Shown in pieces: positions 29,806 through 59,005 of a stretch of DNA of 64,000 nucleotides. A program made the translations under genes and the position numbers. How positions within the stretch are numbered: position 1 is the stretch's first letter; every line of letters starts with the position of its first letter. Source of the stretch: a virus (taxonomy: Duplodnaviria; Caudoviricetes); the IMG/VR virus record IMGVR_UViG_3300010965_000005, positions 26,583 through 90,582 of that record; one strand, written 5' to 3'. The notes below the pieces were generated by a model, which was given only the letters and a program-made list of their open reading frames with translations, did not search any database and was not told the DNA's origin.

Positions 29806-32800
29806 ATGGACAGAGACAAGGCAATCCGCGCGGCGAAGCTGACACTCGGTGGTATGCTTGAAAAGAACCGCCACACCACGGCGGTATCCCGCGCCGACGG
29901 CCAGATCGCCCCGTCCAAATACCTGCCCAACGTTCCCCGCGCCGTCCATGGTGATGGGGGTAAGGTGGAAGATGCCATCAACGCCCTGCCGCATGTTGGA
30001 CAGAACCGCAACGGTGTTCCGCCTGAAGAAGCTGTGGCTTCGCCGCTGCCCCGCATGGAATATCCGTACATGTCCATGACCCCAGCAAAATCGGTCTACG
30101 CCGACCCGTTGCGAGTGGCGATCAACAAGGCACACGCAGGGGCTAAGGTCGAAGACGTGCCGATGGACAAGATCGTCACAGATGTTGGCGCAATCGGGAA
30201 ATCGAAGATCAGGAACCCCGCAGAAGGCGTTCCGTTCGTGGAGCGCATCAACGGCATTCACCACTTGCGAGACGGAAACCACCGTGCAGCCGCAGCATTT
30301 CTACGTGGCGACAAGTCCATCAAGGCGCTGCTCGCAGATATGGATGAAGCTATCAAGGCAAACGGTCGTTCCGCAACTGAACGCGCTGATGGCGGTGAGG
30401 TTGACGGCATCACCGCCTACCACGCTTCCCCAGAAAACATTGTCGGTCAGTTTCGTCCCAGCGCCCGCGATGTTGGCATTCACTTTGCAGCAAACCCAGC
30501 CTTGGCACACAACGCAGCCGTCAAATCTCTGATGGGTCGCCCAGACATGGCGGAAAGGGTTTCGCCAAAGGCGTTCAAGATCAATGCGCGCCCAGAGCAG
30601 ATCGTTGACATCCCTGCCGCATCAAACAGATTTGATTTCTATGAAATTCTTGAGCATCTTCACGGGGCTGGCAAGATTGATTCTGATACGTTCAACAAGA
30701 CCTATGACGGCCTTCAGGACATTGAAGATAGGATCAGCCACCCTGACGAGACGATGAAGGCCCAGAACGTTCTCTTTTCCAATGCTCTGTCCAAGTCAAA
30801 CATCAAAGCCCTGCGCTACATGAACAAGTTTGACGCTGGCCCGACATGGAAAGACATGGAAGAGGGGCGGATGACCAGTTCCGTCACTCCAGATCACTCT
30901 TACATTGTCACAGACCCATCCGCCATTCAGCAACAAGCAATCACCAAGGCAGATGGTGGCGCAGCAAATGCACCCATGTTTCAGGGTGTCCACGAGAGCC
31001 TGCAAAACGAAAGCGGCGCACCGCTTGACCTGTATCATGGGACAACGCAGTCCAAAGAGTTTGAAGCGTTTGACAACGCCAAACTTGGCGCGCGGGATGC
31101 TGGCTTCTATGGCCGAGGTCATTACCTGACGCCACTCAGGGGCAACGCTGAAGGTTACGCTGACCCAGACGAAATGGGGAGGGGCGCTGTTATCGGCCCG
31201 CTCCACGCTGCCTTGAAAAACCCCTACGTTTGGGACGTTTCGAGTGAAACCAAATCGCACAGCACCCTGCGTGATTTGCAGTCTATGGGAATCATGCGTG
31301 AGAAAAACGAATTGAACCCGTGGGACAATCTCCAGTCACACCATATCCAGCCGTTTATGGCTGAAATGCAAAGACGCGGCCACGATGGCGTTGTCGTCAA
31401 GACTGACCACGGGCATCTCCCCAATGGCATCTCTGAGGTCGTGGCATTTGATCCCAAGACCATCAAGCACACCGAGGCCGAGGCGTTTGACCCCACAGAC
31501 CCCCGCATCCGCCGCGAGGATGGTGGCGAAGTCGACGAGGACGGCATCACAGCCTACCACGGCAGCCCACACAGCTTTGACAAGTTTGATATGAGTAAGG
31601 TCGGCACTGGCGTTGGTGCGCCGTCTGCTTTCAGCGAAGGGCTATATTTTTCAGAAAATGAGAAGAATGCAGAACATTTCAAGGCGTTAGGTGCGAGTCC
31701 CATTATTGGAGGTAAAAAGGGGCGATCCGCTGGCTTGTCGGATGATGCTTATGAATCTGTATGGAAATTTGCACACGATCAAGGCAAAAGCGGAACACTT
31801 GCTGACGTTGCTAGTGATGCAGAATCTGATCTTCTTGCCCGCTCCAAGGAACTTCCGTTTTCCGCAAGGCGCGATTACCAGAACGTCATTGACGAACTAA
31901 GGTCGCGTGGCAGTGAAGATGTAAAACTTGGCGCGAATATGTATAAGGTGAAAATAAATGCTCATCCGTCAACTTTTGCCGATTGGGATACCCCTATTTC
32001 GCAACAAAGCGAAATTGTAAAAAATGCTTTTTTGGATTTCCCTCAACATAATACCTTTAGGGAGTTGTATGATAGCGGAAAAATCCGCGAAAAAGACCTT
32101 CTTAATAGAGGAGTTTCTGGCGCTAGATTTAAGGCCAACGACGGAACCAATAATTACGTTGTCTACGATGATAAGTTGGTCAGCATCTTAAACAAATACG
32201 AATACGGCGGCACCGTCACCAGAGCCACGGGTGGGCCAGTCATGGGCTACGTTCCGGCTGCGCCGATCCAGATCAGGCAGTTGGCGGTGGCCCCGATTGT
32301 CCCCCGCCAGCAGCAGCGGCCTGCGGGGGGTTTCAGCCAATCCCTCGGCTCCCTGATGGACACGGTCAACGAGTTAAAGAACAAGCCCGAAGAACCCACG
32401 CCAAGCGCGTCCAGCGAGGGCCACACGCCGTCTGGCATGATTCCCCTACCTGAGCAGGGGTATCAGCCAAGTGGCATGTATGCCCCATTCCAGAGCGCCA
32501 TTGACAGGATGATTGCGGAGGCCCCAGGCAAAATATCCGTGGCGTCTGGCTATCGGACACCAGAGCGGCAGCAAGAACTTTGGGAGGCCGCAGCAGCAAA
32601 GTATCCAGACCCTGAAGTAAGGGACAATTGGGTCGCCCGCCCTGGGACTTCATCCCACAATTACGGTTTGGCTGCTGACTTGTCCTACGCCGACGACGAG
32701 GCCCTGAAGTGGGCGCAGGAAAATGCCGCAAGATACGGCCTAAATTTCCGCATGGACAACGAGGATTGGCACATCGAGCCAGCAAACGTCTTTGACATAC

Positions 32801-32925
32801 GGAGCGCCATGACGATCCCAGGGTATGCCACGGGCGGATCGGTCAGCAAAGCCCTCGCCCTCACGCGCGGATTTACGAAAGATGGGAAGTCTGCTATAGG
32901 TTCCCTCAAGCCCAAGGGGAAATGA
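29806..32925 (+). CDS. Polyvalent protein: ParB-like domain, three ART-PolyVal-like ADP-ribosyltransferase domains, M15 (D-Ala-D-Ala carboxypeptidase-like) peptidase
   Basis: LRDGNHRAAAA (ParB/Srx). Three segments starting AYHAS / LYHGT / AYHGS with GxxF/Y and ending YIVTDP / VVAFDP / YVVYDD. SGYRT...SSHNYGLAAD...EDWH (M15). Confidence 0.75.
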   Translation: MDRDKAIRAAKLTLGGMLEKNRHTTAVSRADGQIAPSKYLPNVPRAVHGDGGKVEDAINALPHVGQNRNGVPPEEAVASPLPRMEYPYMSMTPAKSVYADPLRVAINKAHAGAKVEDVPMDKIVTDVGAIGKSKIRNPAEGVPFVERINGIHHLRDGNHRAAAAFLRGDKSIKALLADMDEAIKANGRSATERADGGEVDGITAYHASPENIVGQFRPSARDVGIHFAANPALAHNAAVKSLMGRPDMAERVSPKAFKINARPEQIVDIPAASNRFDFYEILEHLHGAGKIDSDTFNKTYDGLQDIEDRISHPDETMKAQNVLFSNALSKSNIKALRYMNKFDAGPTWKDMEEGRMTSSVTPDHSYIVTDPSAIQQQAITKADGGAANAPMFQGVHESLQNESGAPLDLYHGTTQSKEFEAFDNAKLGARDAGFYGRGHYLTPLRGNAEGYADPDEMGRGAVIGPLHAALKNPYVWDVSSETKSHSTLRDLQSMGIMREKNELNPWDNLQSHHIQPFMAEMQRRGHDGVVVKTDHGHLPNGISEVVAFDPKTIKHTEAEAFDPTDPRIRREDGGEVDEDGITAYHGSPHSFDKFDMSKVGTGVGAPSAFSEGLYFSENEKNAEHFKALGASPIIGGKKGRSAGLSDDAYESVWKFAHDQGKSGTLADVASDAESDLLARSKELPFSARRDYQNVIDELRSRGSEDVKLGANMYKVKINAHPSTFADWDTPISQQSEIVKNAFLDFPQHNTFRELYDSGKIREKDLLNRGVSGARFKANDGTNNYVVYDDKLVSILNKYEYGGTVTRATGGPVMGYVPAAPIQIRQLAVAPIVPRQQQRPAGGFSQSLGSLMDTVNELKNKPEEPTPSASSEGHTPSGMIPLPEQGYQPSGMYAPFQSAIDRMIAEAPGKISVASGYRTPERQQELWEAAAAKYPDPEVRDNWVARPGTSSHNYGLAADLSYADDEALKWAQENAARYGLNFRMDNEDWHIEPANVFDIRSAMTIPGYATGGSVSKALALTRGFTKDGKSAIGSLKPKGK

Positions 32926-32926
32926 C

Positions 32927-34204
32927 ATGGATGACATCGTAAACAAGGCTTTGAGCCTGACATCACCAATGCCGAAAGCGCCTACGCCGCGTTTCAGTAT
33001 TTCCCCACAAGGAACTCAAGCGCCGACAAAGGGAAAGGTTGGTGTTTTTCAAACGCACGATCAGACACCCACGATGAGAAGCTTAAAAGACGCTTTTGAT
33101 TCGGCAATTGCAAACCATGTTTCTCTAAATCGAGAAGAGCGCATTCAGAATGCAATGGCCGCAGACCGCAGGCTTGCGCAGCACGTCCCAAGCAGTTCTG
33201 GAAAAGGCGCTGCGCCAATGTTTACGAAGAACGCCAAGCTTATGAAGTCCGAAACAGGATATGGCGACGAGGAACCAGTAAAGCTGCCAGACGGTCGTGG
33301 CGTTGAGACAACTGGATTGGCGCTCGCTCCAGCATATCAGGAAGGAAAATTCTCAACCTGCCCCAACAGCGCGTCATGCAAGGACGAGTGCCTTGGAAAG
33401 ACCAGCGGCAATTATTTCAAAGTTGGCGGCGGTCGAGATTTGACGGCATTCAAAGGGCCTCGCCTGAACAGCCTAAAGAAAACAAACGCAATGATGCGTG
33501 AACCAGAAGCTTTTGCTGTTCGATTGTATGACGAGATTGACCGAGCAAAGGAAGAAGCAGCGCGCAATGGAAACCACCTTGGGGTACGCCTTAACACCCT
33601 TTCTGACATCAACCCATTGGTCCACAAGTCTTTGATAGAAGCGCATCCTGATGTCAGTTTTTACGATTACACAAAGAACAACTCAAACCCTGTTGCTGCA
33701 AACCATCACTACACATATTCCTCAACTGGTGTTTCCGATCCAGAAATTGCCGTGTCCAATGAACACACGAACTGGAAGCAGATGCGCCGTCGCCTTGATG
33801 GCGGCGACAACGTGGCAATGGCATTCTCCCACAAAGAACATTTGCCAGAGGTTGTCGTTGATGAAGAGACTGGAAAGAAATACAAGGTTGTCAACGGCGA
33901 CAAGCACGATTTCCGACCCCTCGATATTCAGCCCGAAGGCACCGACGGCGTCATCGTTGGTTTGAAAAACAAGAAGGCAACTGGAACGGTTGAAGGAGCC
34001 ACCAAAGAAAGCAAAGGCTTCTTTGTTCGCTACAATCCAAAAGCCTTGAAGAACCCAGATGGTACATATCAAAGAGGCCCAAGCCAAGGACTGGACAAGA
34101 ATGGTAATCCTTTGAAAGGCCCAACAATTCCAACCAACTTTGAAGTTCGGATTGCACCGCAGGGAAAGCAGCTTTCCTTAAAAGACAATGAAGGGAAATC
34201 GTAA
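32927..34204 (+). CDS. GP88-family-like protein with N-terminal extension
   Basis: TCPNSASCKDECL (Cx5Cx3C), VRLNTLSDI, FYDYTK, GDKHDFRPLD. Confidence 0.65.
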   Translation: MDDIVNKALSLTSPMPKAPTPRFSISPQGTQAPTKGKVGVFQTHDQTPTMRSLKDAFDSAIANHVSLNREERIQNAMAADRRLAQHVPSSSGKGAAPMFTKNAKLMKSETGYGDEEPVKLPDGRGVETTGLALAPAYQEGKFSTCPNSASCKDECLGKTSGNYFKVGGGRDLTAFKGPRLNSLKKTNAMMREPEAFAVRLYDEIDRAKEEAARNGNHLGVRLNTLSDINPLVHKSLIEAHPDVSFYDYTKNNSNPVAANHHYTYSSTGVSDPEIAVSNEHTNWKQMRRRLDGGDNVAMAFSHKEHLPEVVVDEETGKKYKVVNGDKHDFRPLDIQPEGTDGVIVGLKNKKATGTVEGATKESKGFFVRYNPKALKNPDGTYQRGPSQGLDKNGNPLKGPTIPTNFEVRIAPQGKQLSLKDNEGKS

Positions 34205-34478
34205 TGGACAAAAAACTTGATGTGGATTCGTTCTACGCGCAGTTTCACAATCACGAAAAGCACCTGACAGATCAGGAACATGACTATGTCCCTTCAGATG
34301 TTGCTTACCAGACTAAGACCCCGTCTCGCCATCCACATCCTGATTACAGGAGCAAGAAAAAACATAAGCACCATGCTGTTGACAAGGCTCTACGGCTGAC
34401 GGTGGGGATGTGAACATTGATCGTGCATTGTCCCTGACTTCGGTATACAATGCAAAGCACAAACGGGACGCCGTGTAA
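34204..34478 (+). pseudogene. About 91-aa protein interrupted by a 1-nt lesion near 34393-34395 (track shows only 34204..34413)
   Basis: One extra G in CTACGGCTGAC restores ...AVDKAL-RADGG-DVNIDRALSLTSVYNAKHKRDAV*, ending at TAA 34476-78, just before the SD of the next gene. Confidence 0.6.
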
Positions 34479-34496
34479 CCTCAGAGGATTGTAAAA

Positions 34497-35867
34497 ATGG
34501 ACGCCAAAAGCCTACGCGAGGCGATGAAGGAGAAGGCCAAGCGCCTCTCTGGAGCCACTTCCGAAAAAGTTGATGCTTCGACTTGGACCCCATCCGAGCC
34601 ATTGAACGCAGACGTAAAGACGGGCGCTCGCCCAGTCTCCCGCCGCGCATTCAAAGTCGGCGGCAAGGTCGATGGCGCTGAATCCATGAGCCACGCAGGC
34701 CGCAAGCCCCGCCAGTCGGGTGGCAAGGCCTACGCTGATGCTCTGGTCAACCGCAACGTCAAGGACGCCAACGAGGAACGCGAAGGCATCAAGCACGTCG
34801 GCGGGTTCGCCAAGGGCGGTCGCCTGAAGCGCGCAAATGGTGGCACCGACGAGGAAGTTGTATTGAATCAATACGGCCAGCCGATCACAGCCGAAATGAT
34901 GAAGGGCTTTGCTGATCTCACCGAGCAGCCAGATAATTACCGCTCGCAAATGGCCCCACGGACCTCCCCACGGCCCAAGACTCGCCCGGACATGGAAGAC
35001 AAGACGATGTCTGGCGTATACAAGCGCGGCGGCAAGGCTGAAAAGTTTGAAGGTTCGGCCAAGGACCAGATGCAGGACAAGAAGCTGGCTGCCAAGCGCA
35101 AGATGACGATGGCCGAGTGGGAAGCATCCGAGGCTGACGACAAGCACGACAAGCAGGAATCCATGAAGGGCCTGAAAGACGGGGGTCGCACCGCAAAGAT
35201 GGGCGGCGGCGGCATGGGTATGCAAGCCCCAATGATGCAAATGGCACCAATGGCGCGTGGTTACAAAAAAGGCGGCAAGGCCGAGGAAGCCCACGAAGAA
35301 GGCTGTGACTGCAAAGCTTGCGGCGGCTCGGCCATGAAGCGTGGCGGCGGTCTGTATGCCAACATCAACGCCAAGCGCAAGCGCGGTGAAAAAATGCGTG
35401 AGGCTGGCGAGAAGGGTGCGCCAACCGCCAAGGCATTTGAGGACGCGGCCCGCACGTCACGCGCCACGGGTGGCAAGGTCGGCAAAAGCAACATCAGCAT
35501 CAACATCTTCCCGCACAACGCCGAGAAGCCTGGCGCTATGCCCCCAGCGGGCGGTATGCCACCCATGCCCCCGATGGGCGGCGGCGCTATGCCACCCCCA
35601 ATGATGCGCCCACCGATGCCTGCACCATCTCCCATGCCCTCTGCGCCTCCACCCGCTCACATGTCCCTTCCCCCAGGCTTGCAGCAGGCTCTGGCTGGCG
35701 CTGCTGGCGCTGGACCCATGCCACCCGCAGGTGGCCCGCCCATGATGGGCCGCAAGGCTGGTGGCCGCGTGGCATACCCAATCACTGGCGGCGCTGGCGG
35801 TGGCAAGGCTCGCCTCGAAAAGGTTGATGCCTACGGTGAGACGATGAACAAAGACCTCAAGAAATAA
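34497..35867 (+). CDS. 456-aa Lys/Gly/Met/Pro-rich head-region protein with about 11 x-x-x-GG motifs
   Basis: SD GAGG; repeated FKVGG, RQSGG, FAKGG, RANGG, YKRGG, LKDGG, YKKGG, MKRGG, RATGG, RKAGG; Pro/Met-rich tail. Confidence 0.75.
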   Translation: MDAKSLREAMKEKAKRLSGATSEKVDASTWTPSEPLNADVKTGARPVSRRAFKVGGKVDGAESMSHAGRKPRQSGGKAYADALVNRNVKDANEEREGIKHVGGFAKGGRLKRANGGTDEEVVLNQYGQPITAEMMKGFADLTEQPDNYRSQMAPRTSPRPKTRPDMEDKTMSGVYKRGGKAEKFEGSAKDQMQDKKLAAKRKMTMAEWEASEADDKHDKQESMKGLKDGGRTAKMGGGGMGMQAPMMQMAPMARGYKKGGKAEEAHEEGCDCKACGGSAMKRGGGLYANINAKRKRGEKMREAGEKGAPTAKAFEDAARTSRATGGKVGKSNISINIFPHNAEKPGAMPPAGGMPPMPPMGGGAMPPPMMRPPMPAPSPMPSAPPPAHMSLPPGLQQALAGAAGAGPMPPAGGPPMMGRKAGGRVAYPITGGAGGGKARLEKVDAYGETMNKDLKK

Positions 35868-35939
35868 GCCGACCCCTCCCTTCGGCTTACGGGGGCCAGA
35901 CAAAAACTGGCCCCCACCCCATGAAAATTAGGATTATCC

Positions 35940-36146
35940 ATGATCACGACCGTCAGCACCGCCTTTGAGCGGGAACTCCTCAAACTTATCATCGAGCGCT
36001 GCGCCGAGATCATCGGCAACATGGCTGGCGGACTTGCCATAAAGACCATTGAAGAATATCGTGAATCCGTCGGAAAAATTTCCGCGTTCAATGAGGTGAT
36101 CTCGCTTTGCGACGAGGTTTCCACAAACATTAACAAGACCATGTAA
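35940..36146 (+). CDS. Hypothetical protein (68 aa)
   Basis: SD AGGA; operon position. Confidence 0.6.
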   Translation: MITTVSTAFERELLKLIIERCAEIIGNMAGGLAIKTIEEYRESVGKISAFNEVISLCDEVSTNINKTM

Positions 36147-36155
36147 GGATTACCA

Positions 36156-36545
36156 ATGCCCCATATGCCCATGAGCCACGAAAAAGACCCCAAGGAAGCC
36201 CTGCTTGAACAAATTGGGGACATTTCGGAAATCGAATTGTTCCACAATCAAGTCCTTCTTGCTGTCTATTTACGGCCAGAAAAGACCAAATCTGGCTTAA
36301 TCCTGACCGCTGACCACCTTGATGAAGACCGCTACCAGTCCAAAGTCGGGCTTCTGATCAAGCGTGGCCCGCTGGCCTTTGAGCAGGACGGCAACTGGTT
36401 CACGGGGATGACGTTCCAAGACCACGAATGGCTGATCTTCCGCCCGTCTGACGGCTGGTCAATTACCGTAAATGGCGTCTTGTGCCGAATCTTTGACGAC
36501 ATCAGCATCAAAGGCCGCGCCCCACACCCTGATTCCGTTTATTGA
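36156..36545 (+). CDS. groES: GroES-like co-chaperonin
   Basis: NQVLLAVYLRPEKTKSGLILT mobile-loop pattern, then KVGLLIKRGPLAF and WLIFRPSDG. Confidence 0.72.
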   Translation: MPHMPMSHEKDPKEALLEQIGDISEIELFHNQVLLAVYLRPEKTKSGLILTADHLDEDRYQSKVGLLIKRGPLAFEQDGNWFTGMTFQDHEWLIFRPSDGWSITVNGVLCRIFDDISIKGRAPHPDSVY

Positions 36546-37372
36546 AGGTGAACGACATGGATGAAGAAATCGAAATTATCGTTGATGATGAAATTGCCGA
36601 GGCCGAGGAAATCCAAGTCCCCGACATTCAAGAGTCAATCTCTGAACTGAAGCGCCAGATTGACGTTGAGCGTCAGGCTCGCATTGCCGCCGAAAAGCGG
36701 GCGCACCACGCCAGCAGCGAAAAGGACGACACCGAAATCCAGTTGGTGTCCAGCGCCATTGACAGTGTCACGCGGGACGCCGAGATTCTAAAGAGCAATT
36801 ACCAGATTGCCATGCAGAATCAGGACTTCGCTGGCGCGGCTGAAATTCAGCAGTTGATGGGCGAGAAGTCGGCGCAATTGCTCCAGCTTCGCAACGGCCT
36901 TGAGGCGATGAACTCCAAGCCGAAGACTCCCGAACCGCAGTATACGCCCGCCGACCCCGTGGAGGCCTTCGCGGCGCGGCTGACGCCGATCTCGGCCAAT
37001 TGGGTCCGCAATAACCCCCAGTTCGTCACCGACCCCCGCCTGAACCGCAAGATGATCAGAGCGCACGAAGACGCGGTTGATGATGGTATCGCCCCAGACA
37101 CGCCCGCATACTTCGCGGCTATTGAGAGCAAGCTGGGAGTGTCTAAGGCCGCCCCCAGCAATGACACTGGCGATCAGTTCGCATCCAAGGTCACCCAGCG
37201 CCGTGACGCCGCCCCAGCGGCTGCCCCAGTGAGTCGTGGCACGGGTTCCAACAGCAAGAACACGGTCAGGCTGACGGCGGCAGAGCGCGAGGCGGCAGCC
37301 GACATGGGGATGACCCCAGAGGCTTACGCCAAAAACAAAATTGACTTGATCAAGGAAGGTAAAATGAAATGA
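36542..37372 (+). CDS. Putative capsid scaffolding protein
   Basis: Acidic coiled-coil N-half; C-terminal VRLTAAEREAAADMGMTPEAYAKNK; between portal and MCP. Confidence 0.62.
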   Translation: MKVNDMDEEIEIIVDDEIAEAEEIQVPDIQESISELKRQIDVERQARIAAEKRAHHASSEKDDTEIQLVSSAIDSVTRDAEILKSNYQIAMQNQDFAGAAEIQQLMGEKSAQLLQLRNGLEAMNSKPKTPEPQYTPADPVEAFAARLTPISANWVRNNPQFVTDPRLNRKMIRAHEDAVDDGIAPDTPAYFAAIESKLGVSKAAPSNDTGDQFASKVTQRRDAAPAAAPVSRGTGSNSKNTVRLTAAEREAAADMGMTPEAYAKNKIDLIKEGKMK

Positions 37373-37905
37373 TGGAAAATGATGACTTTAAGCCAATTGA
37401 GAAGAAGCTTCGCCCAAGTGTCAGGGCTGCTATGACCACCGAGGAAACCCCACGGGAGCGCGCCGAGCGGCGGGCCGCAGAACTTCGCGGCCACTCGGAC
37501 ACAGACGACGGTCTGGATGAATTCTTTGTGGAGCCGGGTATCATCCCCGACGGCTGGTCCTACGAGTGGAAGACCCGACTCGTCCTCGGTGCGGAAGACC
37601 CCGCACACCAAGTGGCGTTGCAGCGCAAGGGTTGGGAAATGGTCCCCGCGTCCCGCCACCCCGAAATGATGCCGCTGGGCTACAAGGATGCCATGATCAC
37701 CCGCAAGGGCATGGTTTTGATGGAACGCCCGCTGACCATCACTGAGGAGGCCCGCAACGCCGAAAAGCGCCGCGCCCGCCTTCAGGTCCGCGCCAAGGAA
37801 GAGCAGCTTTCCGCGTCGAAGCCGGGCGAGTTTGGCCGCGACAACAACGGCAATGATCTGACGAAGATCAAGAAGGGGTATGAAGCCATGCCTATCCCTG
37901 AGTGA
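37369..37905 (+). CDS. Conserved head-module protein
   Basis: ATGA overlap; WSYEW...KGWEMVP...GMVLMERP. Confidence 0.7.
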   Translation: MMENDDFKPIEKKLRPSVRAAMTTEETPRERAERRAAELRGHSDTDDGLDEFFVEPGIIPDGWSYEWKTRLVLGAEDPAHQVALQRKGWEMVPASRHPEMMPLGYKDAMITRKGMVLMERPLTITEEARNAEKRRARLQVRAKEEQLSASKPGEFGRDNNGNDLTKIKKGYEAMPIPE

Positions 37906-38037
37906 TCAAGGCAATCACTATTTACAACTACATCGGGCGTCTCCGCAAAGCCATCAGGGCCGAGGGGACGCCCGCCATCCAAGAGGCGTGGGAAAAGTTG
38001 GAGCCGCACGTTTCGGTGTTTTTCAGCGGTGATGATG

Positions 38038-38667: not shown

Positions 38668-39258
38668 ATGGCGAATTCAAATACGCCCTTCGGCTTTCGG
38701 CAATACAGCGGCACGGGTTCCGCCCCGACCTATGAGCAGGTCGCGGTTGACATCGTGTATAACGCTTCCGCAATCTATTACGGCGACCCCGTAATCAACG
38801 ACGCAAACGGCTATGTGACTGTGGGTGCAGCCGCATCGACCGAAGTCACCGCCACAATCGCTGGCATCTTCCAAGGCTGTAAATACCTGTCGGTGTCGCA
38901 GAAGCGCACCGTGTGGTCGAACTACTGGCCTGGCTCTGATGTTGCATCGGGTAACACCGTCACGGGTTACATCGTCAATGATCCAAACGCCAAGTGGGTT
39001 GTGCAGTCGGATTCGACTGGCCTGACGCAGGCTGCGATCAACGCAAACATCAGCTACAACACTGGCACGGGCAATGCCTCGACTGGTATCTCTGGCGCAT
39101 TCTTGGGTGCGACCATTGCGACCACCTCGACGCTGCCATTCCGCGTCATTTCGCTGCTCACCACTCCCCCTGGCTCGCCAGGCACTGAGGCTGGTGCGTA
39201 CAATCGGGCAATCGTTGCCTTCAACTCGGTTGCTACCAAGCAATTGACTGGCGTGTAA
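38668..39258 (+). CDS. Putative capsid decoration / minor head protein
   Basis: MANSNTPFGFR...IYYGDPV...GIFQGC...VNDPN; immediately upstream of MCP; SD AGGAG. Confidence 0.65.
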   Translation: MANSNTPFGFRQYSGTGSAPTYEQVAVDIVYNASAIYYGDPVINDANGYVTVGAAASTEVTATIAGIFQGCKYLSVSQKRTVWSNYWPGSDVASGNTVTGYIVNDPNAKWVVQSDSTGLTQAAINANISYNTGTGNASTGISGAFLGATIATTSTLPFRVISLLTTPPGSPGTEAGAYNRAIVAFNSVATKQLTGV

Positions 39259-39269
39259 GGGGATAAGAA

Positions 39270-40181
39270 ATGGCTGTTAATCTATCAGCAATCAAAGACC
39301 TTCTGTTGCCGGGCTTGCGTGGTATCGAAGGCAAATACGAGCAGATTCCGTCGCAGTACGACAAAATCTTCACGAAGCACAACTCCAAGATGGCGCTTGA
39401 GCGCACCGCAGAAATGCGCTTCTTGGGCTACGCGCAACTGAAGACCGAGGGTGGCCAGACCTCCTTTGACAACGCGGCTGGCGAGCGGTTCATCTACAAC
39501 CAAGAGCATACGGAAATCGGCTTGGGCTATGCGATCACCCGCAAAGCCATTGACGACAACCTGTACAAAACGCAGTTTGCTCCCTCAAACTTGGGCTTGG
39601 TGGAATCGTTCCAGCAGACCAAGGAAATCTACGGCGCAAACGTCCTGAACACCGCGACCACCTACAACGGTGCCATCGGCGGTGACGGCGTTGCGCTGAT
39701 TGCCACCAACCACCCAATTGACGGTGGAACGGTTGCGAACCGTCCGACGACCGATGTCGAACTGAACGAGGCCACCCTGCTGAACGGCATGATCTCGATT
39801 CGTACCAACTTCCGCGATCAGGCTGGCCTGAAGGTCTTCGCCCGTGGCCGCAAGCTGGTTGTTCCCCCACAGTTGGAGCCAATCGCCATTCGTCTGACGA
39901 AGACCGAATTGCGCCCAGGCACCGCAGACAATGACGTCAATGCGATCATGTCCACCGCTGGCGGCTTGCCAGAGGGCTACATGGTCAATGACTATCTGAC
40001 CTCGACTGGTGCATGGTTCTTGCTGACCAACATCGACGGCCTGTCCTACATGGAGCGGGTGAAGTTCGAAACGGATATGCAAGTTGACTTTGTTACGGAC
40101 AACTTGCTGGTGAAAGGCTATGAGCGGTATTCTTTCGGATACTACAACTGGCGCTCGATCTACGGCTCGTTCCCAACCTAA
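39270..40181 (+). CDS. Major capsid protein
   Basis: 303 aa; LLLPGL, EGG...YNQEHTEIGLGYAITRKAIDDNLY, KLVVPPQLE, WFLLTN, YERYSFG; followed by a strong terminator. Confidence 0.85.
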   Translation: MAVNLSAIKDLLLPGLRGIEGKYEQIPSQYDKIFTKHNSKMALERTAEMRFLGYAQLKTEGGQTSFDNAAGERFIYNQEHTEIGLGYAITRKAIDDNLYKTQFAPSNLGLVESFQQTKEIYGANVLNTATTYNGAIGGDGVALIATNHPIDGGTVANRPTTDVELNEATLLNGMISIRTNFRDQAGLKVFARGRKLVVPPQLEPIAIRLTKTELRPGTADNDVNAIMSTAGGLPEGYMVNDYLTSTGAWFLLTNIDGLSYMERVKFETDMQVDFVTDNLLVKGYERYSFGYYNWRSIYGSFPT

Positions 40182-45511: not shown

Positions 45512-45888
45512 TGTCAATCGTACTTGACGGAACTTCAGGTATCAACGCAAATACAGGTACTGTTGCTGATGCCTCCGGCGATGTCCGTAACCTTATAAAC
45601 AACGTCAAGACGTCTGCGTACATCTTGGCGTTGGCGGATAACGGAGATATAATCAACATCACCACGGGAGGTGTGACGGTAAACTCTGGAATTTTCTCCG
45701 CAGGCAACAACATCACCATCTACAACAACAGTGCTTCGTCGCAGACCATCACCCAAGGCTCTGGCGTGACGCTGCGTCTGGCTGGATCGGCCACCACGGG
45801 GAACCGCACTCTGGCCCTGCGCGGCATCTGCACTATTATCTGCGTGGCATCGAATGAGTTTGTCGTGTCTGGGGCGGGATTGACCTAA
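45511..45888 (+). CDS. Fibre-associated protein
   Basis: TGATG overlap; beta-rich. Confidence 0.6.
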   Translation: MSIVLDGTSGINANTGTVADASGDVRNLINNVKTSAYILALADNGDIINITTGGVTVNSGIFSAGNNITIYNNSASSQTITQGSGVTLRLAGSATTGNRTLALRGICTIICVASNEFVVSGAGLT

Positions 45889-52241: not shown

Positions 52242-52242
52242 T

Positions 52243-52818
52243 ATGCCGCTGAAACATGGATCGTCGCAGGATACTGTCTCCAGCAACATTTCCGAAATGG
52301 TCAACGCGGGCCACCCGCAAGATCAGGCCATCGCGGCGGCGTTGAATACGGCCCGCCAAGGCCGTGCGCGCGGGGGGCGGACGAGAGTCCACAAGGGGGC
52401 GATCCACTCCTCTGTGGCTGGCCGCACCGATCACCTGCCCATGCACGTCGCCTCCGGCTCCTACGTTATTCCCGCCGACATCATTTCAGCGATGGGCGAG
52501 GGGAACAGCATGGCGGGCTTCAAGGTGGCCAAGAACATCTTCTCGCACAAGGGGCCATACGGCCAGAGCGGTATGCCATACGGCGCGCAGGGCCTGCCCT
52601 ACGGGGTTCCCGCGCCCCGCAGGGCTGACGGCGGTGAGGTTGAGTCTGTGCCTATCGTTGCGGCTGGCGGAGAATATGTGATACCACCCGAAGACGTCGC
52701 GGAGATTGGCAAAGGTGACGTTGATCATGGCCACAAGATTCTCGATGCCTTCGTAAAGAAAATGCGCCAGAAGACGATCAAGACCCTTCAGAGCCTTCCT
52801 GGCCCCAAAAAGGATTAA
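52243..52818 (+). CDS. Internal virion protein with two GG-preceded YVIP modules
   Basis: [18 protein letters not shown]...RARGG...GSYVIPAD...RRADGG...GEYVIPPE. Confidence 0.68.
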
Positions 52819-52821
52819 ATT

Positions 52822-53319
52822 ATGGATGAAATTACAGTTCGCCTCGGTGTCGCCGCAGACTTTGAAGAAATGATGCGGCTGGCTGTAGCCGCCACAGAGG
52901 AAAATGCCTTCGTCGTCCCAGATCTGGCGATGCTGGCAAACCAAGTGTGGGCCTCCCTAACCATGCAACGTGGCGCTGTTGGTGTCATAGGAAACAAAGT
53001 CGGTGGGCCGCTTGAGGGCGCGATCCTGCTGAACATCGGCCCCGTCTGGTATAGCGCAGAGCCAGTCCTTGAGGAAAAGGCAATCTACGTTGACCCAGAA
53101 TTCCGTGCCGCAAAGGGTGGTCGGGCGCGCAAACTGGCGGAGTTTGCTAAGGTTATGGCGGAAAACCTTGAATTGCCACTCGCAATTGGTGTATTATCCA
53201 ATGAACGGACCAAGGCAAAAATTCGCCTATACGAAAGAACATTCGGACCTCCCGCTGGAGTATACTTCCTTTACAACGCCAAGACTGGCATTCCGCCAGA
53301 AATCGAAGGGGAAACCTAA
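52822..53319 (+). CDS. GNAT-like protein upstream of ejection proteins
   Basis: EEKAIYVDPEFRAAKGGRARKLAEF; position equivalent to acetyltransferase-fold genes in podovirus ejection modules. Confidence 0.6.
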   Translation: MDEITVRLGVAADFEEMMRLAVAATEENAFVVPDLAMLANQVWASLTMQRGAVGVIGNKVGGPLEGAILLNIGPVWYSAEPVLEEKAIYVDPEFRAAKGGRARKLAEFAKVMAENLELPLAIGVLSNERTKAKIRLYERTFGPPAGVYFLYNAKTGIPPEIEGET

Positions 53320-56300
53320 TGGGCGGCAAGACAACGACTAGCACGAATACCGTAACCATCCCCAAGGAGGTTATGGATCGGTATAATGCGATCAACACCA
53401 AGGCCGAGGGTATCTCCAACAACCCGTTCCAGAAATACGGAACTGACGCCTCCGACTTTGTCGCTCAGATGAACGAGCAACAGCAGAAGGGTATCTCCGG
53501 CCTGAACGCCATTGCATCGTCTGGCCCAAGCTACAACACCGTTCAAAATTATCTAAATCCGTATCTGACAAATGTGGCCGACACCACGCGGAAGCAGATG
53601 GAGCAGGCCAACGAGCAGGCACAATCTGGCGCTCTCGGCACCGCCGCACAGTCTGGCGCTTTCGGCGGTGACCGCGCTGGCGTGGCTGCGGCAAACCTCG
53701 CCAACCAGCAGAATATGGCGATGGGTTCCACTATGGCGAACATCTACAGCCAAGGATTCGATCAGGCCACCAACGCAAACATGAATGACCTGAATCGCAT
53801 GGCGGGCCTCGCGGGCAATCAGCTTGCGATGGGGACGCAGATGCAGCAGACCGAGCAGGCTGGCAAGGACGCGCTTATTAACCAGTTCCAGCAGGAGCAG
53901 GGCTACCCGTTCCAAGTGGCAAGCTGGCTGGCAAACATCGCCTTGGGGACTGGCGCTCAGTCTGGATCGACCACGACCGCAGTTCAACCCGCGTCCTTCT
54001 GGTCGGATCGCCGCCTGAAGCACGACATCAAGGAAATCGGCACGTCCCACGACGGGATGCCTATTTACACCTTCAAATACAAGGGTGACCCCCAAGCGCA
54101 GACCCATGTCGGTTTCATGGCCGACGAGGTTGAGAAGAAGCATCCAGAGGCTGTCGGCCTCGACCCCAGCGGCTACAAGACCGTCAACTACGACAAGGCT
54201 ACCGAGAGCATGGGCGGCGGCGTCCATCCCCACCACCGTGGCGAGGCGTTTGCGTCGGGTGGCGTTGCGGGGCCGTATGGCTCCCCCGTAGGTTCGCAGC
54301 CAGGCTCTGCGGGATATGTGCCAGAGGGTTATCTGCCTGTTGGCGACGTGATGGTTGCCGATCCAAATTTCTTGAGCCAGCAGCAGCAGGGCTTGGCGGA
54401 TATGTTGTCTGCCGCCGCAGGCGCAGGCAAAGACCTGAGCCAATTGAGCGACACCTTTGGCAAGAATGGCAAGTTCTACAAAATCTTTGACAGTAAAAAA
54501 GCCTACGGTGGCGGCGTCGATGGTGGTCTTATCCCCGCCCCAATCGTGGCTCAGGGCGTAGCGCCACAGCAGCACCGTGGATACCTTGACTCCATCATCG
54601 CCAATCAAGAGGCCAGCAAAAAGCAACCGACCCCACCCCAGTCCGCAGGTGGAAACGGTCAGCAGCAATCTGGCCTGAGCGATGTCGCCAGTACGCTGGG
54701 GTCAATTGCTACAATTGCATCCCTGTTCTCCGACCGCCGACTGAAGCATGACATCAAGGAAATCGGGAAGACCCACAACGGGCTGCCGATCTACACGTTC
54801 AAATACAAGGGTGACGACGCCCAGCAGACCCACGTCGGCTTCATGGCGGACGAGGTCGAGCGCAAGCACCCAGAGGCCGTGGGCCAATCCCAAGGATACA
54901 AGACCGTAGATTACAGCCAAGCCCACAAGTTCGCCAGTGGCGGCGTGGCGGGGGGGCGTCACGGGTATCAGACGGATGGCGCTGTTGACCCAGGCACGGA
55001 AACGCCAGTCTCTCCCTTCGCACCCAAAGAGTCAATTCGCCCAGTCGTCCGACCTGAGCCAAATCAAACACCAGTCGCCACGGGTGTCTCCCCGCTGGCC
55101 CCCACTACGTCCATTCGCCCTGCGGTAAGACCTCAAGGTCTGGCTGCGGCAGAAGTCCCCGTGGCGCAGACGCCAGTCGCCACGGACGTTTCCCCGCTGG
55201 CTCCCACCACGTCAATTCGCCCTGTGGTACGGCCAGAGGGACTTGGCGTTGCAACGGTGGAGCCTGCATCTGGTGACGATGCCGCTCGTGAGTTTTTTAA
55301 CACGAAAATGCTAAATCAAGAGAGCGGAAATCGGCAATTTGACCCAAAGACTGGCGAGACAATCATGTCGCCCAAGGGGGCCGCTGGCATCGCTCAAGTC
55401 ACCAAGCCGACTGGCCCAGAGGCAGCCGCTCTTGCAGGAAAAGAATGGGATGAAAACCGCTGGCTGAATGATACAGAATATAACAAGGCCATCGGTGAGG
55501 CTTACTTTCTTCATCAATACCACAAGTTTGGCTCCCTTGATAAGGCTGCCGCTGCCTACAATGCTGGGCCAGGAAGGCTTCGCAGGGCGATGGAGAACGC
55601 AGCCATTCACGGCGGCTCCTACATGGACTATCTGCCAGACGAGACAAAAAATTACATCAAAGCCACAACTGGATTGGGTGGGGATGTCGTTGGCGGCTTA
55701 GATGGCGGCAGCAGGCTGTCACTCTCAACTATGGACGGCGATCAACAGCCAGCGGGCGGCGTGAAGCCATACGAGGACCGCAACTGGCTGGGCAAGGTCA
55801 TGCACAACCCAGAAGACGGCTCGATGAACAAGGACGCCATGCTGTCGCTGTTTGCGGGCATCGGGGATATGCTGTCGAACCCATCGCCATTCCTGCTGCC
55901 CACCATCGGCGCGGGTATGTCTGGCGCAGCCAACACCTACATGGCGCGCCAAGGGCAGTTGGCAAAAATCAATGAGACGAACATTGGTAACTTGGACAAA
56001 CTATCCGATCTTTACAACAAGTTCATGTTCACAAATCCAGAATATGCTGGGATGACCTTGGAGGAGTTTGCTCAGAAAAATGGCTTGGGCTATATGCTTC
56101 CAAGCGGTGGAGTGTACGAAAGTCCAAGAGGGGCCGAAGGCAAACCCATTACCCTGCAAGACACTCGCGGATATGTTGATTCGGGTGATGGGATCAAAAT
56201 TCCATTTATGAACGATTATGCGTCTCTGACGCGCGTTTCAAATGAATGGAAAAATGCCCCAGAAGGCTCCCCACAACGCAGGGCTGCCGAGCAGGCGGAC

Positions 56301-57065
56301 GTCAAAATCAAAGAGATTGAGGCAAGCGGATACACCACTGGGATTGATGAAAAGACAGGCCAGACGGTCAATGTCCCAGTGGCATCCGCTCGCGCAAGGC
56401 TTGGCGCGGCCCTGACTGACCAGCAAAACGTGCAAAATACTCAAGATTTCCGAACTAAGGCCGCTCAGGAAATTCCGACCATTGGTCCGCAAATGGCTGC
56501 CGTTGATCGTCAGGCCAATATATACTCAACACTGGAGGCTGGCGCTCTCGCGGAGCCTACCGCGCAGATCAGCGCATTGGCCAGAGCATTGGGTATCAAC
56601 TATGGCGATGCCACCAGCGCCGAACAGGCAGCATTGGTTCAGGAGGCCCTCAAAGAAAAAGCCCGTGGCGTGATCTCTCGCGGGGGAAGCGGTGAATCCA
56701 CAGACTTTGCAAAGAGTTTTATTGATACGTCTTCCGCAGGCCCAAGCCTTCAGCCAGATGCAATCAAGAAACTTCTTGTGATTGAAAAGTCATCACTTAT
56801 GAGGCAGCTTGATCACGACAGCCTTCATCAGGAATGGCAGGCTCAGGCTGAGAACCCTTACGACGTGAACGAATATGAAAAGTGGTTTGCTGAAAATCAT
56901 CCACTTGATTCTTACACCAAGGGGGTTGAAGAAAAAATGCCAGTTTTTGCGGGTGAGACAGGTTCGGAGCAGAAACCTTATCCAAAGGGAACTCCGCCTT
57001 CTGAAATTGGAGTCAACAGATACTTCACTCTGCCAGATGGCAGCATTGGGCAAAGGCAGGAATAA
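53319..57065 (+). CDS. DNA ejection / internal virion protein with two S74 chaperone-autocleavage domains and an SLT lytic transglycosylase
   Basis: MGGKTTTST N-terminus; two (W/F)SDRRLKHDIKEIG...FKYKGD...VGFMADEV domains; QESG...GAAGIAQV...AAAYNAGPG...ETKNYI (SLT). Confidence 0.82.
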   Translation: MGGKTTTSTNTVTIPKEVMDRYNAINTKAEGISNNPFQKYGTDASDFVAQMNEQQQKGISGLNAIASSGPSYNTVQNYLNPYLTNVADTTRKQMEQANEQAQSGALGTAAQSGAFGGDRAGVAAANLANQQNMAMGSTMANIYSQGFDQATNANMNDLNRMAGLAGNQLAMGTQMQQTEQAGKDALINQFQQEQGYPFQVASWLANIALGTGAQSGSTTTAVQPASFWSDRRLKHDIKEIGTSHDGMPIYTFKYKGDPQAQTHVGFMADEVEKKHPEAVGLDPSGYKTVNYDKATESMGGGVHPHHRGEAFASGGVAGPYGSPVGSQPGSAGYVPEGYLPVGDVMVADPNFLSQQQQGLADMLSAAAGAGKDLSQLSDTFGKNGKFYKIFDSKKAYGGGVDGGLIPAPIVAQGVAPQQHRGYLDSIIANQEASKKQPTPPQSAGGNGQQQSGLSDVASTLGSIATIASLFSDRRLKHDIKEIGKTHNGLPIYTFKYKGDDAQQTHVGFMADEVERKHPEAVGQSQGYKTVDYSQAHKFASGGVAGGRHGYQTDGAVDPGTETPVSPFAPKESIRPVVRPEPNQTPVATGVSPLAPTTSIRPAVRPQGLAAAEVPVAQTPVATDVSPLAPTTSIRPVVRPEGLGVATVEPASGDDAAREFFNTKMLNQESGNRQFDPKTGETIMSPKGAAGIAQVTKPTGPEAAALAGKEWDENRWLNDTEYNKAIGEAYFLHQYHKFGSLDKAAAAYNAGPGRLRRAMENAAIHGGSYMDYLPDETKNYIKATTGLGGDVVGGLDGGSRLSLSTMDGDQQPAGGVKPYEDRNWLGKVMHNPEDGSMNKDAMLSLFAGIGDMLSNPSPFLLPTIGAGMSGAANTYMARQGQLAKINETNIGNLDKLSDLYNKFMFTNPEYAGMTLEEFAQKNGLGYMLPSGGVYESPRGAEGKPITLQDTRGYVDSGDGIKIPFMNDYASLTRVSNEWKNAPEGSPQRRAAEQADVKIKEIEASGYTTGIDEKTGQTVNVPVASARARLGAALTDQQNVQNTQDFRTKAAQEIPTIGPQMAAVDRQANIYSTLEAGALAEPTAQISALARALGINYGDATSAEQAALVQEALKEKARGVISRGGSGESTDFAKSFIDTSSAGPSLQPDAIKKLLVIEKSSLMRQLDHDSLHQEWQAQAENPYDVNEYEKWFAENHPLDSYTKGVEEKMPVFAGETGSEQKPYPKGTPPSEIGVNRYFTLPDGSIGQRQE
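53997..54925 (+). repeat. Duplicated S74 domain coding sequence (about 53997-54195 and 54726-54925)
   Basis: Near-identical DNA, e.g. ctgaagcacgacatcaaggaaatcgg vs ctgaagcatgacatcaaggaaatcgg. Confidence 0.9.
55002..55245 (+). repeat. Three TPV..SP(F/L)AP..SIRP.VRP repeats
   Basis: Protein- and DNA-level tandem repeats. Confidence 0.85.
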
Positions 57066-59005
57066 TGGCTGATCTCGATCAGGATGGTGAAATCCCATTC
57101 AAATACAGGGTTGTAACCCCAGACTCAAATCAGGCGGAAGTCCCCCAAGACGCTGCGCCTGATTTCAAATATCAAGTCGCAAAGCCAGCGCCCCCACCGC
57201 CACGCCCGTGGTGGGACAGTGCGGATGTTGCAAAGAGCGGAGGCACTGGTTTGGTGCGTGGGATTGTTGGTGCAATTGACTCGGCGCTCACTGGCGGCAG
57301 GCCATCCCCTCAAGATTATCCAGCTTGGGATTCCAGCAAAACCAAAGAGGAAAATTTTGCCGCCATGCGGCCAGCACTTGAGGCAAGTGCGAAACCTCTA
57401 TCGCCAGTTACTGACCTCTATCAGGAGGCGATGCCTGGGGTTATGAATTACAAGCCCACATCAACCGCTGGCGGATACGTCCAAACTGGGGCTGAATTTT
57501 TCCCTGGGATGGCGCTCCCCGCTGGCAAGGGAAAACTGCTCGGCCCCGCACTCACAAGGCTTGCAAGAAACGTTGTTGCGCCAGCTATCACAAGTGAAAC
57601 GGCTGGCCTCGCGGCACAGAAACTTTTCCCCGATAATGAAAGCGCCGAGGCGTATGCGCGCCTTTTTGGGGCATTCGCTGGCGGACCCCTTGGATCGGGA
57701 TTGGAGACTGGAATTCGCGCCGCGACATCACCGTCAAAGATTGACCCTATGATTTCCGTCTTGAATCGAAGTGGCGTCAAAACTACTGCGGGAAATGTCA
57801 CACGGGATCAGCAGCTTTTGTCCAGAGAGGCTCAGGCTCCAAGGACCGCACAAATCTTAAAAGACCAGCCGATCCAGTTCCGCAATGCAGTTTTGAAAAA
57901 TGCTGGCGTTGCAATTCCAAGTGAGGCGCAGACCGTAAACGAAGTCCTTGAACAGGCGCGCAGGCAGAGTGGCAGCACATATTCCCGCGTGACGCAGGGA
58001 CTGAACATTGTGCCGTCCCGATTGAATTCCGCCAAGATGAAGAACATAGCTTCAACGTACTCCACAGACGTCGAGGCTGGCCTACAATCTGGGACAATTT
58101 CCCATATTCAAAAGGCCGTTGAAGATTCATATTTGACTGGGAAGCCAATACCAGCGAAGCAGCTTGGCCTCTGGCGTAGCGCCGTCAGCGCCGCGACTCG
58201 CTCACCATCTGCGGTTGCGCGTCAGTCAGCAATTGAAACTCTAAAAGTACTTGACGATGTGGTGGGAAGGTCGCTTGCCAAAGCTGGTCGCGCTGATGAC
58301 ATAAAACTTCTTGGAAAGGCCCGCTCTCAGTATCGTGATGTCCTTGCCATAGAGGGGGCGCTCCTGAAGGCTGGAAAGATGGGCGATGAAGGTATGTTCA
58401 TGCCAAAGCATTTGGTTGGTTCTTTGACGAATCAGGGAAAAACAGCCTTTATGCGTGGCCGTCGAGGTGAAATGGCGGACCTTGCCCGTGCTGGCCGTGC
58501 GCGCCTCACTCCACTTGAGGAGATACCCCAGCCAAGTGTAAGCACGACGGGGAGAATTATTGGAAATGCGGTTGATGCTGGTGCTGCCCTTCTGGGGTAT
58601 CAGTTGGGAAACAAGATATTTCCACAGAACCCTTGGCTTGCTGGGGGCGTGGGTACAGCCACGGGCGCGGCATCTAGGTCTGCCCGTAATGTCGCTGGAT
58701 CAGCATATAGAAATATCCTTGCCTCTGAGCCACTTCAGGGCGCTATCAAACGTCTTTCCCAAGTTCCAGCAAGCGGGGCAAGCCCTATTACGGGCGGCGT
58801 AGTTGGAGCGGCGGTCACCCCCATAGACCAACGCATGGGCCGCAAATCTGGCGGCAGGGTGGGCGGACACGAGGCCGAGGCAGACCAGTTGGTTTTGGCC
58901 GCAGAGCGTGCTAAGAGGGGCCTGAGCGCCCACACAGAGGGGCTGCTTAACACGCCAGACGACACCGTGGCCAACGCTCTGGAAATTGCGAATAGGAGCA
59001 TCTGA
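57065..59005 (+). CDS. Internal virion / ejection protein
   Basis: 646 aa, Ala/Gly-rich; follows the ejection gene; C-terminal RKSGGRV motif. Confidence 0.68.
   Translation: MADLDQDGEIPFKYRVVTPDSNQAEVPQDAAPDFKYQVAKPAPPPPRPWWDSADVAKSGGTGLVRGIVGAIDSALTGGRPSPQDYPAWDSSKTKEENFAAMRPALEASAKPLSPVTDLYQEAMPGVMNYKPTSTAGGYVQTGAEFFPGMALPAGKGKLLGPALTRLARNVVAPAITSETAGLAAQKLFPDNESAEAYARLFGAFAGGPLGSGLETGIRAATSPSKIDPMISVLNRSGVKTTAGNVTRDQQLLSREAQAPRTAQILKDQPIQFRNAVLKNAGVAIPSEAQTVNEVLEQARRQSGSTYSRVTQGLNIVPSRLNSAKMKNIASTYSTDVEAGLQSGTISHIQKAVEDSYLTGKPIPAKQLGLWRSAVSAATRSPSAVARQSAIETLKVLDDVVGRSLAKAGRADDIKLLGKARSQYRDVLAIEGALLKAGKMGDEGMFMPKHLVGSLTNQGKTAFMRGRRGEMADLARAGRARLTPLEEIPQPSVSTTGRIIGNAVDAGAALLGYQLGNKIFPQNPWLAGGVGTATGAASRSARNVAGSAYRNILASEPLQGAIKRLSQVPASGASPITGGVVGAAVTPIDQRMGRKSGGRVGGHEAEADQLVLAAERAKRGLSAHTEGLLNTPDDTVANALEIANRSI

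Follow-up and report, generated by a model that had tools for sequence, protein, structure and literature searches.

Polyvalent proteins have been proposed to be delivered with the phage DNA and to release their domains by proteolysis, and this processing has been attributed to a built-in zincin (MPTase) domain (Iyer et al. 2017, PMC5512222), in a paper where "linker" and "glycine" each have 0 occurrences. Linares et al. 2023 (PMC10038345) mapped the maturation cut of the phage T5 tape measure protein pb2, which lies behind R1127 and yields pb2* and pb2C. For phage lambda, a 2025 paper on Ur-lambda (PMC12617516) reports that gpH is cut in its glycine-rich C-terminal region, and its authors call the site and the catalyst unknown. 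For phage P22, a RefSeq note states that a 20-residue leader of gp7 is removed by the host oligopeptidase A (OpdA). In this study, we analyzed a stretch of 64,000 nucleotides (the window; positions 26,583 to 90,582 of the IMG/VR virus record IMGVR_UViG_3300010965_000005) from an uncultured podovirus, a short-tailed phage of an abundant group. Its cargo and ejection proteins carry a Gly-Gly peptide, called the joint here, which sits in the seams between independently exchangeable modules, where related phages insert, delete, and swap them. No paper describing this peptide was found, and the polyvalent-protein paper PMC5512222 does not mention it.

The survey of the flanks of the Gly-Gly pairs gave a consensus with R at −6, R/K/F/Y/H at −3, A/K at −2, K/R/E at +2, and V at +3. 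The joint is a short linear motif at the protein level, (P-R-x-x)-[R/K/Y/F/H]-[A/K]-x-G-G-x-V, and it is confined to proteins coded between the portal and the head-assembly genes and in the ejection-protein block. The original prediction, which was made from the DNA letters, had listed sites in proteins of 1039, 456, 191, 1248, and 646 amino acids (aa), and all of these were found at their positions. It had also placed a RADGG in a gene restored to frame at 34204; this site had to be dropped, as there is no in-frame GG and just TADGG in another frame (34392-34406). With the loose pattern [RKYF]xxGG, which allows four residues at −3 and was picked post hoc from the data, 25 of the 56 GG runs in the six flagged proteins had [RKYF] at −3, compared with 7 of 83 in all other proteins (Fisher 9e-7), and the 25 matches stood against 7.1 in composition-preserving shuffles; the enrichment in the flagged proteins is thus far above chance. 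The refined pattern, [RKYFH]-[AKS]-x-G-G-x-[VIA], had 15 matches in five flagged proteins versus 0.4 expected (0 of 2000 composition-preserving shuffles reached this count) and 1 match versus 0.5 expected in the 28 other window proteins (7,630 residues). Because it was derived on this window, the refined pattern was retested on the nearest deposited relative, MW202675.1, where the out-of-sample counts were 7 versus 0.2 expected in three polyvalent proteins and 1 versus 0.7 expected in all remaining proteins. The polyvalent proteins of MW202675.1 are non-homologous to that of the window, save for one ART-PolyVal block and a 54-aa leader. In 80 related loci, the share of GG runs that fit the pattern was 0.61 in the 456-aa orthologues, 0.43 in the polyvalent homologues, and 0.04-0.17 in the portal, scaffold-like, and neighbouring head proteins.

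That the motif is a chance product of a Gly-rich, basic composition is hardly credible to us. The freedom at −3, granted after the data had been seen, speaks for chance, and so does the behaviour of the GroES-like proteins of relatives, which call for caution because they match the loose pattern solely via a mobile-loop-like K-T-x-G-G-I/L-I/L-L. However, composition-preserving shuffles never reached the observed counts, the pattern is missing from the Gly-rich fibre proteins of the same phage, and it replicated out of sample. A protein of 286 aa in the fibre region (45888-46748, PHROG 2295) is 34% glycine and has 51 GG pairs with just two loose motif matches, so a high glycine content by itself does not produce the joint. 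The motif was looked for in the portal, the capsid protein, the terminase, and the scaffold-like proteins and was absent, as had been noticed earlier for the first three. In the scaffold-like 276-aa protein, 1 of 24 GG runs had the pattern (64 orthologues), and the capsid protein showed a single conserved KTEGG.

The portal gene and the motif-bearing cargo island behind it read as follows.

27511..29805, plus strand: portal protein, 764 aa (Pfam SU10_portal 1.4e-13, PHROG portal 2e-27)
29806..32925, plus strand: 1039-aa polyvalent cargo protein (Pfam ART-PolyVal 5e-25, VanY 3e-12, and a second ART-PolyVal-like stretch 2e-6)
32927..34204, plus strand: 425-aa GP88-family protein of the cargo island (Pfam GP88 6e-19, residues 130-358)
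34497..35867, plus strand: 456-aa basic protein rich in Gly/Ala/Lys/Pro/Met, with about 12 joints of the form [KRFY]-K-x-G-G-[KR]-[AV]

The portal, with 0 of its 4 GG fitting the motif, marks the upstream edge of the cargo island, and the gene of the 1039-aa protein begins one base after its end, upstream of the scaffold-like and capsid genes. Judged by its sequence, the 1039-aa protein falls under the polyvalent proteins as Iyer et al. 2017 (PMC5512222) define them. Like such proteins, it combines unrelated effector domains, including ART-PolyVal, in one polypeptide among late virion genes, and the polyvalent proteins of the relative add GNAT, M15_3, and InPase. It has no MPTase domain, which is frequent though not universal in such proteins, and, unlike the proteins of PMC5512222, it has a defined junction peptide. 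The carriers of the joint are thus of a known kind, polyvalent and ejection proteins, and the earlier label "candidate new system" was overstated.

The joints of the 1039-aa protein start at 30382 (RADGG), 30946 (KADGG), 31513 (REDGG), 32221 (RATGG), and 32824 (YATGG), with further sites at 32197 (YEYGG), 32317 (RPAGG), and 29947 (HGDGG, missed by the first pattern). Its N-terminal part consists of a 47-aa conserved leader, HGDGG (residue 48), module 1, RADGG (193), module 2, and KADGG (381), with modules 1 and 2 being unassigned. ART-PolyVal (401-559), REDGG (570), and a second ART-like module (582 to about 800) follow in the middle, and the C-terminal part holds YEYGG (798), RATGG (806), RPAGG (838), VanY/M15 (about 846-1002), YATGG (1007), and a conserved 28-aa tail. 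D-Ala-D-Ala carboxypeptidases in the PDB match the protein from residue 846/847, in agreement with a VanY fold. The leader and the tail are conserved (40 homologues), and in most of 120 homologues a 47-aa leader ending in VPRxVHADGGxV and the tail after the last YAxGG flank variable modules. The AlphaFold2 model of the whole protein was poor (mean pLDDT 45.6), and the finding that all eight joints lie in stretches with pLDDT <50 is weak evidence, as 62% of the residues do so.

In the GP88-family protein, which has no PDB relative by sequence, [RKYF]xxGG occurs at residues 164 and 289, both inside the Pfam domain and not at its borders. Behind it, a 69-aa gene (34204-34470) ends in VDKALRLTVGM before the stop, and the overlapping frame reads STADGGDVNIDRALSLTSVY; both frames hold a [KR]AL.LT element, comparable to KALALTRGF in the conserved polyvalent C-tail. 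A small gene with a joint may be disrupted here by a frameshift or an error of sequencing. The 456-aa protein, which is probably disordered, has 12 motif matches among 23 GG, where about 11 copies had been counted before. Its family has more than 2144 unnamed homologues, in which [RKYF] stands at −3 in 60% of the GG runs versus a background of 21%. The family also has an H-x3-C-x-C-x2-C knuckle, a possible zinc site that is duplicated in some homologues, and a strongly conserved mini-domain, GGGLYANI(H/N)AKR(E/K)RGEKMR..G.KGAPT (PHROG 16028), which occurs inside inserts of the 191-aa family too.

The other carriers belong to the ejection-protein block.

52243..52818, plus strand: 191-aa protein (helical N-domain, RARGG at residue 41, YVIP unit, RADGG at 127, YVIP unit)
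53319..57065, plus strand: 1248-aa ejection (internal virion) protein (Pfam Peptidase_S74 9e-24 in two stretches, SLT 4e-10)
57065..59005, plus strand: 646-aa protein (GRKSGGRV at residue 593, then a strongly conserved 50-aa C-terminal tail)

In the 191-aa protein, RARGG (52363) and RADGG (52621) each stand ahead of a YVIP unit, PHROG 2423 covers residues 1-43, and the orthologue of MW202675.1 is 81% identical and retains the two joints. The 1248-aa protein looks like three fused proteins, because the PHROG matches stop where their families end. Its tandem S74 units start with SDRRLKHDIKEIG at about 229 and 470, FASGG follows at residues 311 and 538 (54249 and 54930), 29 and 17 residues past the end of a Peptidase_S74 unit, and an SLT lytic transglycosylase occupies residues 681-762. 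The two FASGG copies are not independent, because both belong to one duplicated unit. S74 intramolecular chaperones usually stand at the C-terminus of fibres and spikes, and the SDRRLKHDIKEIG motif is presumably the self-cleaving Ser-Lys site of the family. From what is known of S74 proteins, the device in the 1248-aa protein would cut at its own serine in cis and not at GG. In the 646-aa protein, RKSGG is at 58841; compared with the MW202675.1 orthologue, the overall identity is about 26%, and the joint and the tail are almost identical. Judged by gene position and domain content, the polyvalent, the 12-joint disordered, and the internal virion proteins would all be loaded into the head and ejected.

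The motif had been said to mark domain borders, and the Pfam limits, the similarity breakpoints, and the insertion points bore this out. Among 120 homologues of the 1039-aa protein (587-1814 aa), 53-57% of the internal similarity breakpoints, which are not independent events, were ≤10 residues from a motif, compared with 9.6% of random positions. Residues 380-574 of the 1039-aa protein are one block in common with MW202675.1, with the motif at each end, and outside this block just the leader (1-54) is common to the window and the polyvalent protein of the relative. The 739-aa protein of MW202675.1 reads HADGG, GNAT, YASGG, M15_3, YADGG, ..., KAAGG, ART-PolyVal, HARGGVAK-stop, and its 898-aa protein has FNTGG ahead of an InPase domain. 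In the 456-aa family, indels start and stop at joints. In the 191-aa family, 119 of 120 longer homologues have an insert of >60 aa at RADGG (127) or RARGG (41) with a joint on each flank, and two longer homologues contain an ART-PolyVal domain. From these breakpoints, indels, and inserts, it follows that three unrelated carrier families take cassettes at the same peptide, and the finding shows where natural cassette exchange happens. A common origin of the leaders of the 1039-aa and 456-aa proteins was also considered and rejected, as hhalign aligned just the motif (probability 1.5%).

An exchange of this kind could be explained if the joint were mainly an evolutionary seam, a tolerated flexible linker that travels with cassettes and is not recognized biochemically. 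The motif copy on both flanks of a cassette, the duplication of the motif by insertion, and the module swaps precisely at joints all fit this explanation. However, the codons of the copies are not conserved: RADGGEV is coded by CGC GCT GAT GGC GGT GAG GTT in one copy and AGG GCT GAC GGC GGT GAG GTT in another, and the Ser of FASGG by TCG in one copy and AGT in the other. A recombination site at the DNA level is ruled out for this genome, and because the copies differ in codons, it is the peptide that is under selection. The 456-aa family evolves fast and has few invariant columns, and the joint glycines belong to these; GG conservation in this family is 0.85 at joints versus 0.70 for other Gly. 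A neutral linker would not keep residues at −6, −3, −2, and +3, nor would it hold glycines invariant over >2000 homologues, and the flanking pattern is missing where other proteins of this phage are simply rich in Gly. We therefore regard a passive seam as unlikely.

The reading that we put first, though with rather less than even confidence, is that the joint is a cutting joint in head-loaded, ejected cargo, cut three residues before the GG. As a proteolytic processing site, it would be cut after the bulky or basic residue, and the cut would free the modules of the ejected cargo; the enzyme could be a host peptidase (compare OpdA on P22 gp7) or the SprT-like zincin of relatives. One conserved leader and one tail around variable modules fit the logic of a polyprotein, which speaks for processing. 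We placed the cut after the bulky residue and before the GG because the mapped site of T5 pb2 lies there. The deposited T5 sequence reads FVPR↓AEGGMM (the arrow marks the cut), the sole such motif in 1219 residues. Like the window joints, it is basic-Ala-x-Gly-Gly at a border, here between the ruler part and the C-terminal fragment of an ejected protein, and the pb2C fragment carries a metallopeptidase motif. Read from the sequence, RADGG, KADGG, RATGG, YATGG, FASGG, and others in the window would be border joints of the T5 type. Unlike the window proteins, pb2 is a siphophage tail protein with one site and not a many-site head cargo polyprotein, and BLASTP found no significant similarity between pb2 and the window proteins.

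Lambda gpH is reportedly shortened to gpH* (plus gpHC), as Hendrix and Casjens are said to have described in 1974. FATGG (733) and YATGG (778) lie in the region of this cut, and they are a lead only, since the cut site is unmapped. By eye, the segment between them (residues 733-782, GIVHRGEFVFTKEATSRIGVGNL) resembles the G(G/S)(E/S)YVIP..(D/E)....(I/M)G.G(D/N) units of the 191-aa protein; the BLASTP comparison of these YVIP units with lambda gpH or T5 pb2 was not significant. P22 gp7 is an ejection protein of a podovirus, and the removal of its leader by host oligopeptidase A was reportedly shown by Conlin et al. in 1992. The junction, SYPE↓KGGKGG, is trimmed just before the Gly-Gly and fits the motif loosely; unlike the window joints, it is a single N-terminal trim and does not release modules. 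The basic GGKK-type ends of T7 gp6.7 and gp7.3 were also compared and fall outside the motif register. In T4 (gp21, L/I-x-E) and phiKZ-like phages (S/A/G-x-E), a head protease cuts internal proteins. As in these phages, short motifs in the window border proteins that would be packaged in the head, and one targeting leader could serve a whole precursor. T4 and phiKZ, however, code for a prohead protease that can be recognised (gp175 in phiKZ), and their scaffold and capsid proteins contain the motif as well, whereas in the window a prohead protease was not found among the genes between the portal and the capsid gene and the scaffold-like and capsid proteins have no motif. It would be a bold and rather improbable extension that [bulky/basic]-A-x-G-G-x-V is a general tailed-phage code for proteins that leave with the DNA, cut by one conserved activity in podovirus and siphovirus. 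If this were true, the activity would be a widespread host peptidase or an assembly-triggered reaction, it would explain the maturation of lambda gpH and T5 pb2, and phages could add any enzyme to their ejected arsenal by insertion between two joints.

Several points weigh against processing at the joint. No cut has been observed in this phage group, and no paper on its virion proteomics was found. No protease has been identified, and the SprT-like gene is absent in one complete relative with motif-dense proteins. Many homologues stop 3-9 residues past a joint, and the joint stands at the termini of small stand-alone proteins in HTVC027P; a cut at such places would set no useful product free. 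The conservation covers both sides of the GG over about 11 residues, which suits a docking peptide equally. The tape measure protein of RcZahn has a homologous VanY module with no joints around it. In addition, the match has been mapped at one site only, in T5; for lambda the site has not been mapped, and P22 gp7 is a loose fit. Because of the terminal joints, the two-sided footprint, the lack of a known enzyme, and the joint-free RcZahn protein, an uncut signal and a passive seam remain serious rivals.

The joint may instead be an uncut functional peptide, a virion-loading or ejection signal or a specialised hinge, one per module, and we regard this as possible but doubtful. Such a peptide might, with similar doubt, dock on a head or portal component or aid the sequential threading of unfolded modules via the tail channel. 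Motifs at extreme protein ends (HARGGVAK-stop, RANGGAIK-stop, FRRGGYV.. shortly before a stop, and FKNGGKK-stop in HTVC027P gp46), motifs near the N-termini of small stand-alone proteins, and the conserved footprint on both GG sides all agree with an uncut peptide, as does the failure to find a protease, and about 12 copies in one disordered basic protein suit a multivalent binder. No docking partner was identified, however; tape measure proteins, which sit inside the tail tube, also have the motif in T5 and lambda, and docking in the head does not apply to them, and in T5 the motif is a mapped cut site. When the capsid protein was predicted in complex with a five-joint segment of the 456-aa protein (residues 40-125), to test the idea of an encapsulin-like loading peptide, the score was 0.00, which weighs neither way. 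A repeated packaging tag, which had been named as an alternative at the outset, is possible, and the terminal motifs HARGGVAK-stop and FKNGGKK-stop favour it somewhat.

The original prediction described packaged precursors cut at GG. The multi-module, precursor-like cargo near the portal (ART-PolyVal, VanY/M15), fenced by the motif, stood, and the analogy to Gly-Gly↓X proteases did not. Cleavage after Gly-Gly by an orphan-encoded cysteine protease of the adenain, ASFV, Ulp1, or C39 type is, in our opinion, very unlikely. The ubiquitin tail is RLRGG, and the likeness of R-x-x-G-G to it, together with the presence of GG, is all that speaks for such an enzyme. Gly-Gly↓X systems have a hydrophobic residue two before the GG, as in (M/L/I)xGG↓x, or a leader ending in GG; the joint has Ala or Lys at that position (−2), and its other determinants are a basic or aromatic residue at −3 and Val at +3. 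In addition, the mapped T5 cut is before the GG, not after it. In the Pfam and PHROG scans, the window proteins and the relative's cargo genes gave no match to adenain, Ulp1, C39, or another protease, with the contig being incomplete.

Nothing pointed to a protease in the three orphan genes that had been put forward as processing enzymes. The 178-aa orphan has a confident model (pLDDT 77) that matches no protease fold, with no Foldseek match below E 0.3 and VIA Z ≤4.1, and in the ESM Atlas it gave only unnamed viral clusters. The 165-aa protein is GNAT-like, and the 68-aa orphan had no match in the Pfam and PHROG scans. No prohead protease was recognised among the genes between the portal and the capsid gene (Pfam, PHROG, ESM Atlas, and fold search), in line with the first reading of the window, the contig covering 45.3 kb of an approximately 61-kb genome and some but not all ORFs of the complete relative being scanned. 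With a small capsid protein that is without a delta domain, the phage could plausibly follow a head pathway that needs no protease, like T7 or P22. Neither the 1039-aa protein nor the three polyvalent proteins of MW202675.1 matched MPTase or SprT, and proteins of the 1039-aa type carry only M15 or CHAP wall peptidases and no MPTase domain. A stand-alone gene for an SprT-like zincin, the sort of enzyme to which Iyer et al. 2017 assigned the processing, is present in 4 of 5 related records, and in the relative it lies just upstream of the small terminase gene, where the contig of the window folds back; its absence from the fifth, a complete relative, weakened this zincin as a universal enzyme.

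Polyvalent cargo proteins are seen as the first weapon that a phage turns on host defences. A strongly selected junction peptide is a concrete handle for mass spectrometry and mutagenesis. With it, module borders can be predicted for metagenomic proteins that lack annotation, of which there are thousands (in this group alone, >2000 homologues of the 456-aa protein and about 600 IMG/VR capsid relatives), and it may tie in with the so far unexplained cutting of the tape measure proteins in lambda and T5. What is new here is a statistically clean, replicated case in an abundant podophage clade, with three carrier families, conservation at the DNA level excluded, and no recognisable protease.

The gene set of the phage includes an SU10-type portal, an adaptor, an HK97-type capsid protein, tail fibres, an endolysin, and the ejection-protein block. 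The portal is 77% identical to that of MW202675.1 (61,219 bp, circular map, Manatee Spring), and the remoter relatives are the Pelagibacter phages HTVC027P/023P, the Roseobacter phages CRP-901/902, and the Caulobacter phage RW. A relative of the capsid protein is encoded in 593 IMG/VR stretches, the best 80 of which are 89-97% identical. The contig does not cover the whole phage genome, as relatives have about 61 kb. Its 90,582 bp form a perfect palindrome, in which 45,291 bp of unique sequence are joined to their reverse complement; positions 1-18709 of the window are the exact reverse complement of 18710-37418, which leaves 45.3 kb of unique sequence in the window, and the motif-carrying genes are all in the unique arm. 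The center (18709/18710) lies a short way upstream of two genes, one for an HTH (small-terminase-like) protein and one for the large terminase, and the palindrome is most likely, indeed almost certainly, an assembly fold-back at a self-complementary repeat. This repeat region and the head-assembly core are listed below.

18648..18770, no strand: (TA)n run at the palindrome center, not part of the motif system but a constraint on what can be read from the contig
36156-36545, plus strand: GroES-like protein, 129 aa (PHROG/Pfam), motif-free
36542-37372, plus strand: coiled-coil scaffold-like protein, 276 aa (alignment pattern), motif-free
37369-37905, plus strand: orphan, 178 aa (AlphaFold2 pLDDT 77, no fold match), motif-free
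38668-39258, plus strand: 196-aa protein, just a cement-like lead, motif-free
39270-40181, plus strand: major capsid protein, 303 aa, HK97-type (PHROG/Pfam), head core, motif-free

The GroES-like gene is kept beside the scaffold-like gene throughout the group (HTVC027P, CRP-902, Caulobacter RW), and the copy of the window is without the K-T-x-G-G-I-I-L mobile-loop-like segment found in relatives. The 276-aa protein is coiled-coil and scaffold-like, and the "Clp" annotation of its counterpart in the relative is spurious. The interval from the terminase to the portal (24220-26184) codes for endonuclease VII-domain, RyR-domain, and Lar-like restriction-alleviation proteins. Within the head module, the rates of change contrast sharply across the 80 loci, with the capsid protein 89-97% identical and the 276-aa and 178-aa proteins just 32-58% identical.

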